Of a DNA stretch of 64,000 nt, positions 20,614 through 27,149 are shown piece after piece (position 1 is the stretch's first letter; every line of letters begins with the position of its first letter). Where the stretch lies: assembly GCA_963703345.1 (NCBI GenBank), contig OY969814.1, forward strand, positions 1,630,967 through 1,694,966. The letters run 5' to 3'. A program made the position numbers and the translations under genes. This stretch comes from an uncultured Chloroflexia bacterium. GTDB taxonomy: Bacteria > Chloroflexota > Dehalococcoidia > DSTF01 > JALHUB01. The notes beneath the pieces were generated by a model. It was not told the DNA's origin, ran no database searches, and was given only the letters and a program-made list of their open reading frames with translations.

Positions 20614-20642
20614 GACGGGCCCGAGCCGAAGGAGGTCGGTTG

Positions 20643-21260
20643 ATGGAGCCGCTCAAGTGTGTTGAGTGTGGCGCATTGTTCGAATTGTCGGAGGATAGAC
20701 GGCGGAGGTATCCAAAGTGGAAACCGAAGGTATGCCTAGCCTGCTACACGCGCGCCAGGCAGCGCCCTGAACTCAACCTTTCGACCGACGAGGTACTTCA
20801 GAGGTTCACCAAGGGCCCGAACACAGGTCTCTTCACAGATGGCAGTTGTGAGCACAATCCGAATGGACCAGGTGGATGGGGAGCGGTGAGAGTCCGGAAC
20901 GGCGTCGTTATGGTTCAGAAGTGCGGGCATTCGCCCGAGACCACGAGCAATCGCATGGAACTCACGGCACTCATTGAAGCGTACAAGATGCTGGCACCCG
21001 ATGAGGAAGCAGTAGTCTACACAGACAACAGGTACGGTCAAAACATCGCCTCGGCGTGGGCACGGACGTGGAAGAGAAACGGATGGACCCGAGGAAAGAA
21101 GCACGAGCCGGTAGAGAACCTAGACCTAGTGCAGGAATTGTACGCATTGGTTGAGGCTCACCCGCTGGTTCGCGTGGAATGGCAAAGGGGACACGACGGC
21201 TGTCGGTGGAATGAGTACGCTGACTCCCTATCGACAGCGTACACCCGCGATAGTGTCTAG
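20643..21260 (+). CDS. RNase H (type 1) domain protein with an N-terminal CxxC...CxxC zinc ribbon, in a low-GC (~54%) islet
   Basis: CVECG...CLAC; LFTDGSC (Asp1), ELTALIEAY (Glu), VYTDNRY (Asp), WQRGHDGCRWNEYADSLS (Asp). Local GC is about 14 points below the flanks. Confidence 0.65.
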   Translation: MEPLKCVECGALFELSEDRRRRYPKWKPKVCLACYTRARQRPELNLSTDEVLQRFTKGPNTGLFTDGSCEHNPNGPGGWGAVRVRNGVVMVQKCGHSPETTSNRMELTALIEAYKMLAPDEEAVVYTDNRYGQNIASAWARTWKRNGWTRGKKHEPVENLDLVQELYALVEAHPLVRVEWQRGHDGCRWNEYADSLSTAYTRDSV

Positions 21261-22039
21261 GACTCCCCAGCCAGCGTGACGTCGCCGGCGGAGATGACGG
21301 CGATGCTGCCGTCGGGGCGACGCAGCAGGAGGTTGCCCTCGGCGTCAACGTCCTCCGCGACGCCTTCCTCCAGGCGGTCGCCGAACTGCGCGCGCACCTG
21401 CTTACCGAGCGTCTCTAACCGCGTTCGCCAGGCCTCGTAGACATCGCCGTCGAGGCGAGAGGCGGCGAGGAGCTTCTCGAATCGGTTGAGAACGGTGGCA
21501 AGCAGCTTCTCCCGCGCGACTTTTCGTCCGGACTCGTGCTCCAGGCTGACGGCGATGTCGCGAATCCCTTCGTGCTGCGAGGGGTCGAGATCGACGTTAA
21601 CGCCGATGCCGACGAGCGCGTACTCGACGTCACCGCCGCGGAGACGCGAGTCGATCAGGATACCGCCCACCTTGCGCCCTTCAATCAATATGTCGTTCGG
21701 CCATTTGATGCTGCTCCTCACGCCGGCGACGGCGTCGACCGCTTCGCAGACCGCGAGCGGCGCCACCATGACGAGTTGACGGACGGCGTCGGGCTCCGGG
21801 CGAAGGACGATGGTGACGTAGAGGCCACCGGGCGGCGAGACCCAGGCGCGGCCGCGGCGCCCGCGACCGGCGGTCTGCTCATCGGCGAGGACGATGAAGC
21901 CGTGGGGAGCGCCAGATTCCGCCTCTTCTCGCGCCACGTCCATCGTCGAAGAGACGGCGCTTTGATGCAGGGCCAACCGACCAAGTGAGTCGGTTTCAAG
22001 CAGCGACTGGAGCGCGCTTAGACAAAAGTCGCCATTCAT
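21257..22039 (-). CDS. birA: Biotin--[acetyl-CoA-carboxylase] ligase (group I, no HTH)
   Basis: EQTAGRGRRGRAWVSPPG...KWPNDIL...GILIE motifs. Confidence 0.8.
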   Translation of the reverse strand: MNGDFCLSALQSLLETDSLGRLALHQSAVSSTMDVAREEAESGAPHGFIVLADEQTAGRGRRGRAWVSPPGGLYVTIVLRPEPDAVRQLVMVAPLAVCEAVDAVAGVRSSIKWPNDILIEGRKVGGILIDSRLRGGDVEYALVGIGVNVDLDPSQHEGIRDIAVSLEHESGRKVAREKLLATVLNRFEKLLAASRLDGDVYEAWRTRLETLGKQVRAQFGDRLEEGVAEDVDAEGNLLLRRPDGSIAVISAGDVTLAGES

Positions 22040-23574
22040 TTCGGCACCGGGTACAGCTCTTGGAGGAGCTCGCGGGCGACGCTTCGGTCGTCCCAGGGGA
22101 CATGCATGTCGCCGATGACCATCGATTGCTCGGTGCCCTTGCCAGCGAGGAGCACGACGTCGCCGGGGCGCGCGAGCTCGAAGGCGCGGCGGATGGCGGC
22201 GCGGCGGTTCGGAACGCGCAGGAAGTCGTCGCTTTCCCGACGGCCGGCGGCGATGAGGGCGCGGGCGATCTCGGCGATGATGGCGTCGGGGTCCTCGGAG
22301 CGCGGGTCTTCGTTCGTGAGGATGACGAAATCGGCGAGCTCGGCGGCGGCGCGGCCCATCCCTTGGCGGCGATTGTGGTCGCGCTCACCGGCGCAACCGA
22401 AGACGGCGATGAGGCGGCCTTTCGTCGTCGAACGGAGGACCTGGAGGACGCGACGCAGGGCCTCCGGCGTGGAAGCGATATCGACGACGACGGGGAACGG
22501 CTGGCCGCAGTCGACCGTCTCCATGCGGCCGGGCACACCCTTGAAGGCGGCAAGCGCGGCGCATGTTGTCTCCGGCGCTACCCCAAGCGAGAGGGCGACG
22601 GCGACGGCGGCAAGGGCATCGTACAGGTTGTGCCGTCCGGGAAGCGGCAGGCGGACGGGCAGGCGGCCAAACGCCCCGACGAGGTCGAAGACGGAGGCGA
22701 GCGGCTCCAGTCGAAGCGATTCGGCGCGGATGTCGGCCGGCGCGTCGATGGCGTAGGTGACGGCGTTGGCGCGCGTACGGGAGCGCAGAACGTCGGAGGC
22801 GGGATCGTCGGCGTTGAGGACGGCCGTCTTGGGCACGCCCTTGTCGACGCTCTCGTCCAGCATCCCAAACAGGCGGCCCTTCGCGGCGAGGTAGGCGGAC
22901 GAGTCGCCATGGAAGTCGAGGTGGTCGCTGCTGAGGGTCGTGAAGACCGCAACGTCGAACTCGCACTCGTCGACGCGGTTGAGCGCGAGGCCGTGCGAGG
23001 AAGCCTCGATGACGGCGTAGCGGCGGCCCCCCGCGACCATACGGGCGAGCATCTCCTGCACTTCGGGCGCCTGGAGCGTCGTCATGTGGGTGGCGTTGAG
23101 CTCCGGGCTGGTCGCTGTCTGGAAGGCAACGCTGCTGAGGTAGCCGGCAGGCAGGCAGGCCGCCTCCAGGAGCGCGGCGATGAGATGGACGGTGGTTGTC
23201 TTGCCGTCGGTGCCGGTGACGCCGATTGTGACGAGCCTTCGGGCCGGGAATCCCCAGAAGGCGGCGGCAATTCGCGCCAGCGAGCGGCGGCTGTCGGGGA
23301 CGACGACGAAGGCCGCGCTACCACCGTTTGCCAGCGCCTGCCACTTCGCCTGCCGGTCGGCCTGGACGACGATTGCGGCGGCGCCCTTTTCAAGCGCCAT
23401 GGCGACGAAGTCGTGGCCGTCGCGGCTTTGCGGCGGCAGGGCGCCGGGCACGGCGACGAAGACCGAGCCCGAGGTGACGAGTCGGGAGTCGTAGCAAACG
23501 GCCGGGACGGACGCAGGCGGTTGCCCGTCGAAGCGGGCGTAGGGCAGGAGCAAAGGCCAGTCGATGCGGGTCAT
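22036..23574 (-). CDS. murE: UDP-N-acetylmuramoyl-L-alanyl-D-glutamate--2,6-diaminopimelate ligase
   Basis: GVTGTDGKTTT P-loop, DNADD, Mur ligase C-terminal domain. ATG at 23574 has a GAGGTG RBS; the ORF is open to 23787. Confidence 0.8.
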   Translation of the reverse strand: MTRIDWPLLLPYARFDGQPPASVPAVCYDSRLVTSGSVFVAVPGALPPQSRDGHDFVAMALEKGAAAIVVQADRQAKWQALANGGSAAFVVVPDSRRSLARIAAAFWGFPARRLVTIGVTGTDGKTTTVHLIAALLEAACLPAGYLSSVAFQTATSPELNATHMTTLQAPEVQEMLARMVAGGRRYAVIEASSHGLALNRVDECEFDVAVFTTLSSDHLDFHGDSSAYLAAKGRLFGMLDESVDKGVPKTAVLNADDPASDVLRSRTRANAVTYAIDAPADIRAESLRLEPLASVFDLVGAFGRLPVRLPLPGRHNLYDALAAVAVALSLGVAPETTCAALAAFKGVPGRMETVDCGQPFPVVVDIASTPEALRRVLQVLRSTTKGRLIAVFGCAGERDHNRRQGMGRAAAELADFVILTNEDPRSEDPDAIIAEIARALIAAGRRESDDFLRVPNRRAAIRRAFELARPGDVVLLAGKGTEQSMVIGDMHVPWDDRSVARELLQELYPVPK

Positions 23575-23671
23575 ATCACCTCGCGAGTCGATTTCCGTCA
23601 TTATAGCGCCGGAGCCGAGCGTCGGCGAGAAAAGGGAGGCCCGTCCGCCTGAGGCGGACGGGCCACGCAAG

Positions 23672-24079
23672 CGCCAGCGGACCTGTAAGCCGAGTTCTGT
23701 CTTTCCGCCCAAGGCGGACAGGCCGCCTTCGACGAAACGGTGACCATCTATCTGGGATGACGGTTGCCCGCCACCTCTAGCGACCAACCCGAGGACGGGC
23801 CGGGCGAGCCCATAGTCCTCCTATTCGGTCTTGCTCCGGGTGGGGCTTGCCCGGCCAGCCGGTCGCCCGACTGCCGGTGAGCTCTTACCTCGCCATTTCA
23901 CCCTTATCCACCTGAGGCAGACAGGCCGCCTGCGGCGGACGGTATGTTTCTGTGGCGCTTTCCGTAGGGTCGCCCCTCCTGGGTGTTACCCAGCACCCTC
24001 GCCCGGTGGAGCTCGGACTTTCCTCCCTCATGCGTCTGCATCGCAGACGCGCGAGAGCGGTCACCCGGTCTGCTGGCGA
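23672..24079 (-). ncRNA. rnpB: RNase P RNA (bacterial type A)
   Basis: Reverse-strand reading gives GGGAGGAAAGUCCGAGCUCC (P4 5' strand), GGGUAACACCCAGG, ACAGAAACAUACCGCC, UAAGGGUGAAAUGGCGAGGUAAGAGCUCACC, and 3' ACAGAACUCGGCUUACAGG with a P1 pairing cgccagc/gctggcg. About 408 nt. A GC hairpin follows the 3' end. Confidence 0.85.
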
Positions 24080-24137
24080 GTCAAGTATAGCAGGAACGGG
24101 AGGACTTTAGAAGGCCGCCGTACTTCTGCCGGCGCGC

Positions 24138-24369
24138 CGAGGGCGTGTCTGAGGCGTCACTATAGGCAGCCCGGAGCGCGTTAGCACAAGCGCCTCGAGC
24201 GCGTGTCTGAGGCGTCACTATAGGCAGCCCGGAGCGCGTTAGCACAAGCGCCTCGAGCGCGTGTCTGAGGCGTCACTATAGGCAGCCCGGAGCGCGTTAG
24301 CACAAGCGCCTCGAGCGCGTGTCTGAGGCGTCACTATAGGCAGCCCGGAGCGCGTTAGCACAAGCGCCT
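24138..24369 (+). repeat. Four perfect tandem copies of a 58-bp unit (cgagcgcgtgtctgaggcgtcactataggcagcccggagcgcgttagcacaagcgcct), with no spacers
   Basis: Exact 58-bp periodicity read directly. Related solo copies lie at 44140 and 61438. Confidence 0.9.
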
Positions 24370-24411
24370 CGACGGCCTGGATCGTTCGTTGGATAGACAG
24401 GCGCCAATTCG

Positions 24412-24831
24412 TTATGTCGAGCTGTCGAGGGCCTGGTTGGCGAGGTTGTCGGCGAGGCGATTGCCGGTGCGCGGGACGTTTCGAAAGGTGGCGGACTGGA
24501 AACGGCTGCGCAGGTCAAGGAGGCGCTTGTAGAGAGGGATCAGTCGCGGGTTTCGAACGCGGTAACGGCCGGTGAGCTGCCGGACGACGAGCTCGGAGTC
24601 CATGCGCAGCTCGACATGAGCGGCACCGAGGCCCAATGCGGCTTCCAGAGCGCTGATGGCGGCACGGTACTCCGCCTCGTTGTTGGTGCCGACGCCGGTT
24701 CGTCGCGACTGCCGGTGGACTTCGCGGCCGGCGGGATCGAAGATGACGACGCCGACAGCCGAAGGACCCGGGTTGCCCCGCGAGGCGCCGTCGGCATAGG
24801 CGACGTAGACCGACCGCTGCGCCTCGCTCAC
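24412..24831 (-). CDS. rnhA: Ribonuclease HI-like protein
   Basis: YADGASRGNPGPSAVGVV...NNEAEYRA...RMDSELVVRQ...NRLADNLANQA; all four RNase H catalytic D/E/D/D positions present. Confidence 0.8.
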   Translation of the reverse strand: MSEAQRSVYVAYADGASRGNPGPSAVGVVIFDPAGREVHRQSRRTGVGTNNEAEYRAAISALEAALGLGAAHVELRMDSELVVRQLTGRYRVRNPRLIPLYKRLLDLRSRFQSATFRNVPRTGNRLADNLANQALDSST

Positions 24832-26240
24832 GGCCGCAGCGACACCTCGATGCCATCGTCGACGACGATAATACGGTTGACGACGTCACGCAGGAGAGAG
24901 CGCCGCGAGGGGAAATCGAGCGAGTCCCAGCGGTCGCAGAGACGAAGCAACGCCTGCTCCTGCGCCCGCCGTCGCGCGGCCACCGACGCCTGTTCCTCGA
25001 CGCGCCGCTCCGCCGCGACTAATCGCCCCTCCATCTCAAGCCGCTCGGTGGCAAGCGCCATGCCGAGTGATTGCAGCTTCTCGCGGCTAAGGCGGCCGCG
25101 GGCGGCGGCGTCCATGTGCCGCTCCAGTCGCTTGTCCAGTTGGGCCAGGCGGCGTCGCATCTCTTCTCGCTCTTCCTTCGATTCGGCGAAGACGGCGTCC
25201 TGATCACCGGCCTGGCGGAAGGCGCTTCCGCCATCTAGGTCGAGTGCGGAAAGCTGCCCGCGCACCTCGCTTTCGAGGTCGTCGGCGCGACGGGTGTGAT
25301 AATCGCAGAGGCTCTGGTTTGTGCGCGACTGGCACTGATAATAGCGATAGGAGGCTTCGGCGACGGAACCGTCCCGCTGCCGCTTCCAACTCTGTCGGCG
25401 GCTTACGCCAATCATTTTGTTGTTGCAGTAGCCGCAGTAGACGAGTCCGGAGAGCAGGAAGGGCGCGGCCTGCGGCGCGGAGTAGCTGCTGCGGCGCGCC
25501 ATCAGGCAGTCCTGCACGCGGCGGAAGTCCTCATTTGAGATGAGAGCGGGATGGCTGCCCGGCACGCGGACGCCGAAGCGGCTGTAGGTGCCAAGGTAGG
25601 TGCGGTTGCGAAGGATGTCGCGGATGCTCACCATGCTCCAGTTGCCGCCGCGTCGGGTCTTGACGCCCTCCTGGTTCAGGCAGCGGGCGATGCGTCGGAT
25701 GCCGAGCCCCTCCTGCAAGTAGAGTCGAAAGATGTAGCGGACGACGACGGCTTCCTCCGGGACCAGGTCCAGGCGGCGGCGATTGCCGACCCGATAGCCG
25801 AAAGGCGGCCGGCCGAGCACTTCGCCTCTGACGGCTTTGCGTCGCATGGCGGAGCGTACTTTGTCGCCGACGCGGCCCTGGTTGCTCTTGGTCCAGGCTT
25901 CGAGGAGGCGACCGGTTGCGTCGTCGTCGTTCATGACGAGCACCTGGGCGCCGAGGCCCTGCAGCTCGAACCAGCTCCGGGCGGCCTCCTTGACGTCGCG
26001 GCCGAGGCAATCGATTGACGGCGTGACGACCATCAGGAAGCCTTTCTCCGGCCGCTTGAGGAACTCGACGAGTTGCTGGTAGCCGGGACGCCTTTCGGCA
26101 TCGACTGCGGCACCGTCGACGAAGGAGGCGACCGCCTCGTAGCCGCGATCACGGCAGAACTCAAGGAAGGCCGTGCTCTGCGCCGCGAGCGGTTCGCCGC
26201 GATCCCCCGCGGGCTCTTTGAAGTAGCCTACCGCCTTCAT
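24828..26240 (-). CDS. Large serine-recombinase homologue (resolvase-like N-domain, recombinase domain, Cys4 zinc ribbon, coiled coil) that apparently lacks the catalytic Ser/Arg residues
   Basis: Recombinase domain (LGRPPFGYR...VRYIFRLY), zinc ribbon (CGYCNNKM...YYQCQS...C). N-terminal AVGYFKEPAGD in place of the A-x-Y-x-R-x-S-T/S-x-x-Q catalytic motif; IDCLGRD in place of DRLGR. Start and stop overlap the flanking genes. Confidence 0.65.
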   Translation of the reverse strand: MKAVGYFKEPAGDRGEPLAAQSTAFLEFCRDRGYEAVASFVDGAAVDAERRPGYQQLVEFLKRPEKGFLMVVTPSIDCLGRDVKEAARSWFELQGLGAQVLVMNDDDATGRLLEAWTKSNQGRVGDKVRSAMRRKAVRGEVLGRPPFGYRVGNRRRLDLVPEEAVVVRYIFRLYLQEGLGIRRIARCLNQEGVKTRRGGNWSMVSIRDILRNRTYLGTYSRFGVRVPGSHPALISNEDFRRVQDCLMARRSSYSAPQAAPFLLSGLVYCGYCNNKMIGVSRRQSWKRQRDGSVAEASYRYYQCQSRTNQSLCDYHTRRADDLESEVRGQLSALDLDGGSAFRQAGDQDAVFAESKEEREEMRRRLAQLDKRLERHMDAAARGRLSREKLQSLGMALATERLEMEGRLVAAERRVEEQASVAARRRAQEQALLRLCDRWDSLDFPSRRSLLRDVVNRIIVVDDGIEVSLRP

Positions 26241-26244
26241 CCGA

Positions 26245-26949
26245 TCAACTCACGTAGAGTATCCGCTCGCAACTGCTGCATTGGACGATGACGTCGGAGC
26301 CGCCGCGGGCCTTCTGCAGTAGCGACATGGGCAGGGAGATGCGGCAGCCGCCGCAGGTGCCCCGCTCGACCTTGGCGACGGCGCGCCCCTGGTGCTTGGA
26401 GCGAAGGACGTCGTACTGGGAGAGCCCCGCGCCATCTATGGCTGCCCGCTGCTGTGCCCGCTTCCCTTCCAGTTCCTCGATCTCGGCCGTCAGGTCAGCT
26501 TGCCGTTGGCGAAGGTCTCGCTGCTCTTGCTCCCAGGCGCCTAGAAGCGAGGCATGCTCGCGACGGGCGGCGGCAAGCGCTCTTTCCGCCTCTTCGAGCT
26601 GCGACATCACTTCGAGCGCCTTGTCCTCGAGGACGCGTTTGCGCGCCTGGATGGACTGGATGTCCTCCTGCAGGCTCGCGAGCTCCTTGGGGTTGTGGAG
26701 GGTGCCGGCGTAGAGCTTCTTCTCCAGGGGCCGGATCTTGTTCGTCAGGTCGTCGACCTCCCATTCGGCGCTGCGGAGGTGCTTCTGAATCTCCTGTGCT
26801 TCGCCTTCCCACCCGCCGATTGCGGCGGCCGCCTCCGCGACCTCTTCGGAGTCGCCGAGCCGCCCTTCGATCTCCTCCAGAGCAGCGCGCTGGCTGTCGA
26901 TCTCCAGGTCCGTCTCCTGAAGCTCGTAGAGGTCGGATATTCTTGTCAT
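26245..26949 (-). CDS. COG1579/DUF164 coiled-coil protein with C-terminal C4 zinc ribbon
   Basis: Long heptad-rich region, then CGGCRISLP...CSSCERIL. This gene is conserved next to RNase H in many Gram-positive/actinobacterial genomes. Confidence 0.7.
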   Translation of the reverse strand: MTRISDLYELQETDLEIDSQRAALEEIEGRLGDSEEVAEAAAAIGGWEGEAQEIQKHLRSAEWEVDDLTNKIRPLEKKLYAGTLHNPKELASLQEDIQSIQARKRVLEDKALEVMSQLEEAERALAAARREHASLLGAWEQEQRDLRQRQADLTAEIEELEGKRAQQRAAIDGAGLSQYDVLRSKHQGRAVAKVERGTCGGCRISLPMSLLQKARGGSDVIVQCSSCERILYVS

Positions 26950-27149
26950 GCGGTCAATTGCAGGCGTGGGTTGCTACTCGTGTCAGGACGAAGGGTGGGA
27001 GGCCCATCGCTGGGCCGCAAGCAGGATTATACGGCGAGCGGCGAAAGACCCGCAAGACGAGACGGAGCGATCCGTCTGGTTTGACCCGCGCAAACAGCGC
27101 TCTTTATAATGGAATTTGAACTTGTTCCTCAGAAGGTTGTGATCCAATA

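Follow-up and report, generated by a model that had tools for sequence, protein, structure and literature searches.

The question raised by the locus described here is whether a gene with the architecture of a site-specific recombinase, located in a cluster of housekeeping genes, still encodes a recombinase and, if not, what its product might do. The gene lies in a stretch of 64,000 nucleotides (the window; contig OY969814.1 of assembly GCA_963703345.1, positions 1,630,967 to 1,694,966) from an uncultured bacterium of the Chloroflexota (Dehalococcoidia). It specifies a 470-amino-acid (aa) homologue of the large serine recombinases (LSRs) and is situated between a gene of the COG1579 type and rnhA, which encodes RNase HI, with rnpB, the gene for RNase P RNA, farther downstream on the same strand (Table 1). 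Serine recombinases are familiar from mobile DNA, where they act as integrases, resolvases, invertases and transposases. The findings indicate that the window protein is very probably dead as a recombinase, domesticated and functional. The explanation favored as a whole, to which a probability of about 0.5 is assigned, is that of a domesticated, inactive LSR that acts with the COG1579 protein as a non-cleaving DNA-binding adaptor near rnpB.

The full LSR architecture that a preliminary description of this DNA had read from the sequence was evident from several comparisons. Thus, Pfam matches of the window protein were to Resolvase (residues 12–117, 41.5 bits, HMM positions 10–117 only), Recombinase (residues 161–244, 75 bits) and Zn_ribbon_recom (residues 262–327, 48.3 bits), and the four zinc-ribbon cysteines, C269, C272, C303 and C312, were invariant among 36 relatives. 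An AlphaFold2 (AF2) model built with 36 relatives (mean predicted local distance difference test score, pLDDT, of 81.5) contained a two-helix coiled coil (residues 347–380 and 386–436). The top Foldseek matches of this model were the full-length LSR structures of SPbeta, Bxb1, A118 and PhiC31 (E-values of 1e-19 to 1e-13), and its N-terminal domain matched the TP901-1 catalytic domain (3bvp) with a target-normalised template modelling (TM) score of 0.70. The four-part architecture and full-length fold are those of A118/LI integrase (4KIS), SPbeta SprA (9DXF), Bxb1 (9IU2) and PhiC31 (9RAH), and a sequence search of the PDB also led to the A118 and SPbeta large serine integrases. At the level of families, the best matches were phrog_95, XisF and CcrA/B/C. 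The match to phrog_95, a serine integrase family and the best PHROG match (264 bits), was aligned from residue 18 onward only, and NCBIfam scores were far under cut-off (74.6 bits versus a cut-off of 375 for XisF). The linker and recombinase domain together carry a net charge of +15, and the alpha-E region, in a by-hand sequence comparison, was about 10 residues shorter than that of gamma-delta resolvase. No PADLOC match was obtained for the recombinase homologue and only coiled-coil noise for the COG1579 protein, and a role as a component of a defence system was rejected accordingly.

Differences from active LSRs were found at the catalytic positions. In a profile alignment to solved serine recombinases, the family segment Y6-F7-R8-E9-x10 aligned on Y-A-R-V-S, the family segment S-L-A-x-Q21 on S15-L-D-I-Q19 of gamma-delta resolvase and the family segment x-S-L-G-x-D on D67-R68-L-G-R71-D72, the last corresponding to D77-C78-L-G-R81-D82 of the window protein. 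An alignment made by hmmalign with the nearest canonical LSRs was in identical register and placed their serine over P10 of the window protein. Thus, the window protein carries K8, P10 and C68 (C78 in its own numbering) and retains R71, so that proline occupies the position of the nucleophilic Ser10 of the Y-x-R-V-S-T motif and the active-site set of Arg8, Arg68 and Arg71 is reduced to its last member. The absence of Ser and Arg from these motifs, as first noted in the preliminary description, was therefore upheld by two concordant alignments (K8, P10, C68).

Other candidates for the nucleophile were considered and rejected. The serine located four residues before the glutamine of S-L-A-x-Q aligns with Ser15 of gamma-delta resolvase, not with Ser10, and is replaced by proline in the window protein. 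The serine of ...PLAAQSTAF, which the preliminary description had singled out as a residue that might occupy the nucleophile position, i.e., S22 in AAQST, varies among N, S, A, H and T across the family. A longer N-terminus is excluded by an in-frame TGA at 26252–26250.

The substitutions are not private to the window copy. Among 179 unique family sequences, position 10 was P in 47, S in 38, A in 35, T in 25, L in 8 and G in 6, with other residues in the rest, and arginine was never found at the R68 position (0/179), which was instead occupied by S, G, A, T or C. The R71 position was Arg in 37 of the 179 sequences, whereas R8 was kept in 170 and the equivalents of Y6, Q19 and E124/R125 also persisted. 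The nearest active relative scored 99.7 bits against Pfam Resolvase and the window protein 41.5 bits, and a more divergent group (subfamily B, described below) gave no match. At the level of sequence, the window protein is thereby confirmed as a presumptively dead LSR homologue (hereafter, the dead LSR) whose loss of catalytic residues is family-wide; with the nucleophilic serine and the Arg68/Arg71 pocket lost, the cutting and rejoining of DNA should not be possible.

The family is large. At least 120 protein-database clusters of full-length relatives (56–92% identity) were noted, those with names all being from Dehalococcoidia or Chloroflexota, and a scan of one genome per GTDB species gave at least 303 genomes with a relative, the best 80 of which (51–92% identity) were all metagenome-assembled genomes of Chloroflexota (Chloroflexota/Dehalococcoidia). 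In a profile search of 1.84 billion representatives (50% clustering), for which the best 150 matches were considered, the serine-less type filled the range between 822 and about 190 bits and accounted for most of these representatives. The complete set of R8, S10, R68 and R71 was seen only in the five lowest-scoring of the 85 representatives in which both motifs were aligned (P0252, P0254, P0260, P0265 and P0269). In a neighbour-joining tree, 54 non-canonical representatives formed one clade and the five canonical representatives fell outside it. The nearest active relative, P0252, is on a 2.2-kb contig and its genomic context was uninformative. The nearest active LSRs have a loop between the Ser motif and the S-L-x-x-Q motif that is equal in length to that of the window family. 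Two further subfamilies, designated B (P0231-like) and C (P0173-like), are more divergent than that of the window, and most of their members lack a Pfam Resolvase match.

Constraint on the protein was evident from ratios of nonsynonymous to synonymous substitution (dN/dS) between the window LSR and six relatives, which were 0.07–0.14 overall, 0.05–0.19 for the N-terminal domain, about 0.05 for the recombinase-domain segment (with linker) and 0.08–0.15 for the coiled coil, although the sequence of the latter varies between relatives. Mean top-residue frequencies in the 179 sequences were 0.94 for the linker, 0.88 for the recombinase domain, 0.77 for the zinc ribbon, 0.66 for the N-terminal domain and 0.59 for the coiled coil, a ranking in which the modules predicted to hold DNA appear as the most constrained parts of the dead LSR. 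The GC content and codon-position GC of the gene matched those of neighbouring genes, and no relative was found in a search of 2.9 million viral contigs. Recent horizontal acquisition was ruled out by this native composition, by the absence from viral contigs and by the synteny described below. The dead LSR clade is of ancient origin, has been transmitted vertically and is maintained by strong purifying selection.

The position of the gene was also constant. In a survey of 89 loci, including the window, the dead LSR gene was syntenic, i.e., in the same place, at 89 of 89, always in a housekeeping context and not in the association with mobile elements or attachment (att) sites that is usual for LSRs. 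A COG1579 gene was directly upstream in every locus with upstream flank, and of the 82 non-redundant loci on which junctions were counted, 74 had a gap of -1 to +4 nt between the two genes. In the window itself, the recombinase start had been described as overlapping the COG1579 stop, but four nucleotides separate the stop (TGA, 26247–26245) from the recombinase ATG at 26240; the overlap described at the other end, between the recombinase stop and the GTG start of rnhA, is present (GTGA, 24831–24828). The junction of the LSR and RNase H genes was likewise a 4-nt overlap in 22 loci and was 8 nt or less in most others. The gene that follows the dead LSR encodes RNase HI in 65 loci and RNase HIII in 16, e.g., L001 (7412–8350, 312 aa; TIGR00716, 190.5 bits versus a cut-off of 161.2) and 15 others that include L021, L027, L030–L036, L042, L045, L064 and L080. 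The change from RNase HI to RNase HIII is an in-place, non-orthologous replacement within the window's subfamily. Downstream of these genes, rnpB was present on the same strand in 72 of the 89 loci.

Outside the window's subfamily, RNase H was not part of the arrangement. In the seven subfamily B and C loci sampled (L085–L091), the COG1579 gene was followed by the dead LSR gene, RNase H was absent in all seven and rnpB began 20–100 nt past the LSR stop in six; in L090 (subfamily C), which lies among insertion sequence (IS) elements, rnpB was not adjacent and ruvB converged on the recombinase gene. The clusters of both L090 and L089, also of subfamily C, were surrounded by IS elements (DDE transposases, rve). 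The conserved unit is COG1579, dead LSR, an optional RNase HI or HIII gene and then rnpB, and the deepest and most constant partners of the dead LSR are the COG1579 gene and rnpB, not RNase H. The proposal of the preliminary description that a recombinase was recruited into a COG1579-RNase H operon holds in that the arrangement is operonic with short junctions; since RNase H is confined to one subfamily and is swapped between HI and HIII, insertion between COG1579 and RNase H genes is one possible history, not a demonstrated one. Its broader reading, i.e., a dead, domesticated recombinase and not a recent integrase remnant, agrees with the family-wide loss of the active site, the purifying selection, the fixed place at 89 loci and the lack of viral relatives. 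The recurrence of the same substitutions and gene order among orthologues in hundreds of genomes, which had been suggested as a check, places the observation far beyond chance.

Comparison with known operons sets this pairing in context. In Mycobacterium tuberculosis, Rv2231c, Rv2230c (NIF3), Rv2229c (COG1579) and Rv2228c (RNase HI/CobC) form an operon (PMC7466739), which documents the adjacency that had been cited as precedent. The window resembles this operon in that a COG1579 gene and a gene for RNase HI of the Rv2228c type belong to one unit, and differs in that the two are separated by the 470-aa dead LSR, a CobC domain is missing from the RNase H and the gene upstream of COG1579 is not NIF3 but a divergent yceD. 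Both members are identified by their domains (Table 1), although the COG1579 protein matched the CdsZ model NF047363 with a score (48 bits) that was under cut-off. The RNase HI matched NCBIfam NF005567 (132.8 bits) over profile positions 7–133, i.e., the N-terminal domain, and residues D14, E53, D78 and D127 were present by inspection. Synteny of flgZ/COG1579 homologues with NIF3, rpoD, dnaG and, in some bacteria, rnhA, and in Borrelia with rnpB, has been described (PMC3372290; PMC8469502); rnpB downstream of the COG1579 homologue is shared by Borrelia and the window cluster, and subfamilies B and C lack RNase H. The window COG1579 protein, which has both CT398_CC and Zn_ribbon_9 domains, belongs to the family of CT398 (CdsZ), HP0958 (FlgZ), MSMEG_4306 and ML1638, members of which associate with RNA polymerase or sigma factors (PMC7092591; bioRxiv 10.64898/2026.07.15.738315). 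Thus, MSMEG_4306 was found to co-purify with the beta subunit of RNA polymerase and to cross-link to DNA (PMC7092591), and binding to the beta' subunit is predicted for the ML1638/CT398 family (bioRxiv 10.64898/2026.07.15.738315). Among the characterised CT398-type members, no partnership with a recombinase-like protein is known, and the pairing of COG1579 with a dead LSR appears to be specific to Chloroflexota.

The flanks of the cluster were examined for promoters, terminators and traces of integration. A promoter-like site of the sigma70 type is located about 77 nt upstream of the COG1579 ATG, and of 86 related loci, 70 had CTATAATC with a TTGC-type -35 element at the equivalent place; a consensus promoter scanner did not report the window site, the -35 of which matches at only three of six positions. 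Between this conserved promoter and the COG1579 gene is a 5' untranslated region of roughly 70 nt (26950–27025). An extended block, AAGTCTATAATCC...TGTCnACCCC, is common to several lineages upstream of COG1579 and matches no Rfam family. A TG-extended -10 element directly upstream of rnpB, as in the window, was also noted in several related loci. The site after rnpB was the only terminator-like site on the minus strand from the cluster promoter to the end of rnpB, and because no such site lies between the cluster and rnpB, read-through from one into the other is possible.

The spacer between rnhA and rnpB is 335 nt in the window compared with about 60–110 nt elsewhere, and is filled by 58-bp tandem repeats. 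The repeat unit is homologous to the single-copy spacer of L005 and L055, relatives at 92% protein identity. The suggestion that these repeats mark an ancient integration event, or are an integration scar, was discarded on the grounds that the copies are 99% identical and that close relatives have a single copy; they represent a recent, lineage-specific local amplification. Each 58-bp unit also holds TTGTGC...TATAGT, with a spacing too long for the promoter scanner to report. A repeat search around the cluster for attL/attR-like flanks, as had been recommended, revealed only the 58-bp array and inverted repeats at chance level, none of the att type.

Table 1. Features of the recombinase homologue, its gene cluster and the rnpB region in the window
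Feature	Position	Strand	Evidence or remarks
Serine-less LSR homologue (pseudo-recombinase), 470 aa	24828..26240	-	Open reading frame, Pfam, profile alignments, AF2, Foldseek, dN/dS
Resolvase-like N-terminal domain, aa 1–133	25842..26240	-	Degenerate active site: K8, P10, C78 (R68 position), R81 (R71 position)
End of alpha-E, linker and recombinase domain, aa 134–250	25491..25841	-	Most conserved, most basic part
Cys4 zinc-ribbon domain, aa 262–332	25245..25457	-	Pfam Zn_ribbon_recom, 48.3 bits
Coiled-coil hairpin, aa 333–440	24921..25244	-	AF2 helices 347–380 and 386–436
COG1579-type gene (CT398-like coiled-coil hairpin and C4 zinc ribbon), 234 aa	26245..26949	-	Pfam CT398_CC, 65.8 bits; Zn_ribbon_9, 36.2 bits
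RNase HI gene (rnhA), Rv2228c N-terminal-domain type, 139 aa	24412..24831	-	Pfam RVT_3, 84.8 bits; RNase_H, 46.3 bits
rnpB, bacterial type A RNase P RNA	23670..24076	-	Rfam RF00010, 284.6 bits (gathering score 100), model positions 1–367 (full)
Cluster promoter-like site, sigma70 type	27026..27055	-	Sequence read: TTGCGG 27055–27050, 18-nt spacer, TATAAT 27031–27026
rnpB promoter -10 with TG extension (TGcTATACT)	24084..24092	-	7 nt upstream of rnpB 5' end
Intrinsic terminator after rnpB	23638..23664	-	12-bp stem, 11 G-C pairs, T-rich tail
58-bp tandem repeat, 4.1 copies	24138..24372	.	99% identity; fills rnhA-rnpB spacer

The features retained by the dead LSR suggest what it may do. Compared with other LSRs, the window family lacks the nucleophilic Ser and Arg68, has mostly lost Arg71 and, by hand comparison, has a shortened alpha-E; its genes lie on the chromosome at a single locus, are inherited vertically and share an operon with housekeeping genes, without a mobile element or att sites. 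The parts that would hold DNA are kept, i.e., the C-terminal end of helix E, the linker, the recombinase domain and the Cys4 zinc ribbon, and the coiled coil, which LSRs use for protein-protein contacts, is kept as well. The fold also matches that of LSR structures solved with bound DNA. The dead LSR would be made from one promoter back-to-back with the COG1579 protein, in a cluster that runs into rnpB without an intrinsic terminator. As a non-cleaving dimer, it may bind a fixed chromosomal site, most plausibly the rnpB flank, and there provide the COG1579 factor, itself on transcribing RNA polymerase, with an anchor or adaptor on DNA, possibly in cooperation through coiled-coil contacts; in the window's subfamily, RNase HI or RNase HIII would clear RNA-DNA hybrids formed near rnpB. 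This specific mechanism, i.e., a DNA anchor working with COG1579 near rnpB, is put forward tentatively, with less confidence than the inactivity and domestication of the protein. As to origin, integrase genes typically abut one att junction, and the dead LSR is likely to descend from an integrase gene stranded beside an attachment junction at rnpB. A more elaborate version, in which the two proteins would constitute a Chloroflexota-wide RNA polymerase accessory module, DNA-anchored at rnpB and derived from an rnpB-flank integrase, that controls or insulates rnpB transcription and, with RNase HI or HIII, removes R-loops there, is speculative and judged unlikely.

Two alternatives accept that the protein is inactive and differ in its target or its partners. 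The main rival, which is judged unlikely, is an RNA-binding assembly or maturation factor, in which the ligand of the dead LSR and the COG1579 protein would be not DNA but the precursor of RNase P RNA or a read-through transcript of the cluster, the processing or folding of which they would assist. Such a role would fit with the adjacency of rnpB, which after COG1579 is the most constant feature of the cluster, with the lack of a terminator between the cluster and rnpB, with the basic, Arg-rich recombinase and zinc-ribbon domains, which could bind RNA, and with the description of the COG1579 homologue HP0958 as a possible RNA chaperone (PMC3372290). It fits less well with the presence of a TG-extended -10 promoter belonging to rnpB itself and with the binding of duplex DNA by all recombinase and zinc-ribbon domains known from the LSR family, as in the matched structures, and the association with RNase H points to hybrids on DNA. 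Somewhat less probable still is a plain transcription factor, e.g., an autoregulator of the cluster promoter, with COG1579, RNase H and rnpB merely co-expressed. The conserved promoter and 5' untranslated region upstream of COG1579 and the retention of DNA-binding domains are compatible with regulation of this kind, but it would leave unexplained both a 108-aa coiled coil and folded N-terminal domain under purifying selection and the tight pairing with COG1579 across subfamilies of 35–40% identity, and no operator-like motif common to the subfamilies was found.

The remaining alternatives would assign the protein some part in recombination, past or present. If an active recombinase were encoded at another site and the dead LSR were its non-catalytic subunit or its regulator, such a heteromeric system could make use of the coiled coil and dimerisation surfaces by which LSRs contact one another; an active recombinase was adjacent in none of the 89 loci, however, and the constant housekeeping context and absence of att-like repeats around the gene also make this improbable. 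Recombination by a non-canonical nucleophile, such as the Ser or Thr found at position 10 in about a third of members, or Tyr6, might be entertained in view of the retained Y6, R8 (170/179), Q19 and E124/R125 equivalents. Given that most members, the window protein included, have Pro, Ala, Leu or Gly at position 10, that Arg is never present at the R68 position and usually lost from the R71 position, and that no target repeats or mobile context were found, residual catalysis is very improbable. Finally, although the catalytic residues are lost and the best PHROG match is to serine integrase phrog_95 (264 bits), a functionless, decaying remnant of a prophage or island integrase is refuted by the occurrence of full-length, intact genes in hundreds of species with a dN/dS of about 0.1, and by their fixed position, tight junctions, native composition and absence from viral contigs.

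Several observations nevertheless weigh against the DNA-binding adaptor favored here. No rnpB was found nearby in 11 loci with enough flank, and seven loci had no RNase H. Scans by k-mers and alignment of 86 upstream and 72 rnpB-proximal spacers revealed only promoter elements and no conserved dyad. Helix E and the linker were poorly modelled, with pLDDT below 50 at residues 127–142. Subfamilies B and C have a nearly invariant His (0.99 and 0.93, respectively) at the R68 position, within a P-D-A-x-H-L-G-x-D-L-E motif that is not present in the window's subfamily; this His hints at a retained or new N-terminal chemistry that the adaptor model does not explain. The association of COG1579 with polymerase would be carried over from distant homologues and in part from structure prediction, and the target of the dead LSR could be RNA rather than DNA.

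Domesticated transposases and recombinases are known as vertically inherited host genes in which DNA-binding modules are kept while catalytic residues decay, and the window LSR resembles domesticated transposases in all three respects. To our knowledge, there is no earlier example of domestication in the serine recombinase superfamily. A literature search found no paper on serine-less LSR homologues, on this cluster or on rnpB synteny in Chloroflexi, and the clade and cluster are apparently previously undescribed. A non-catalytic, vertically inherited clade with DNA-holding and coiled-coil modules would represent a new functional class of the superfamily. Products of COG1579 genes associate with RNA polymerase, and in M. 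tuberculosis the gene is essential; the invariable pairing with a dead LSR offers a testable handle on this widespread family. The constant proximity of rnpB and the in-place exchange of RNase HI for HIII suggest that transcription of a structured RNA gene with high expression is specifically linked to the removal of RNA-DNA hybrids. A polymerase module at rnpB, if real, would give a dead serine recombinase its first housekeeping use and the COG1579 family its first assigned partner and site of action. The clade and its cluster are of interest to the fields of recombinases, accessory factors of RNA polymerase and RNase P. Of practical concern, dead LSR genes carry the names 'recombinase family protein' or 'site-specific DNA recombinase' in current annotation and could be taken for integrases when mobile elements or tools for genome engineering are sought.

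Two further observations concern other parts of the window. An open reading frame at 21985–23652 on the plus strand and others of 100–555 aa are antisense to murE, birA and the recombinase gene; these are the usual artefact of a genome of about 65% GC, and their codon-position GC is not coding-like. A second RNase HI gene (20640–21260, plus strand, 206 aa) encodes an N-terminal CxxC...CxxC extension followed by an RNase_H domain (residues 64–199). This gene is convergent with birA and overlaps its end, an arrangement that is kept in L002, L006, L007 and L015.

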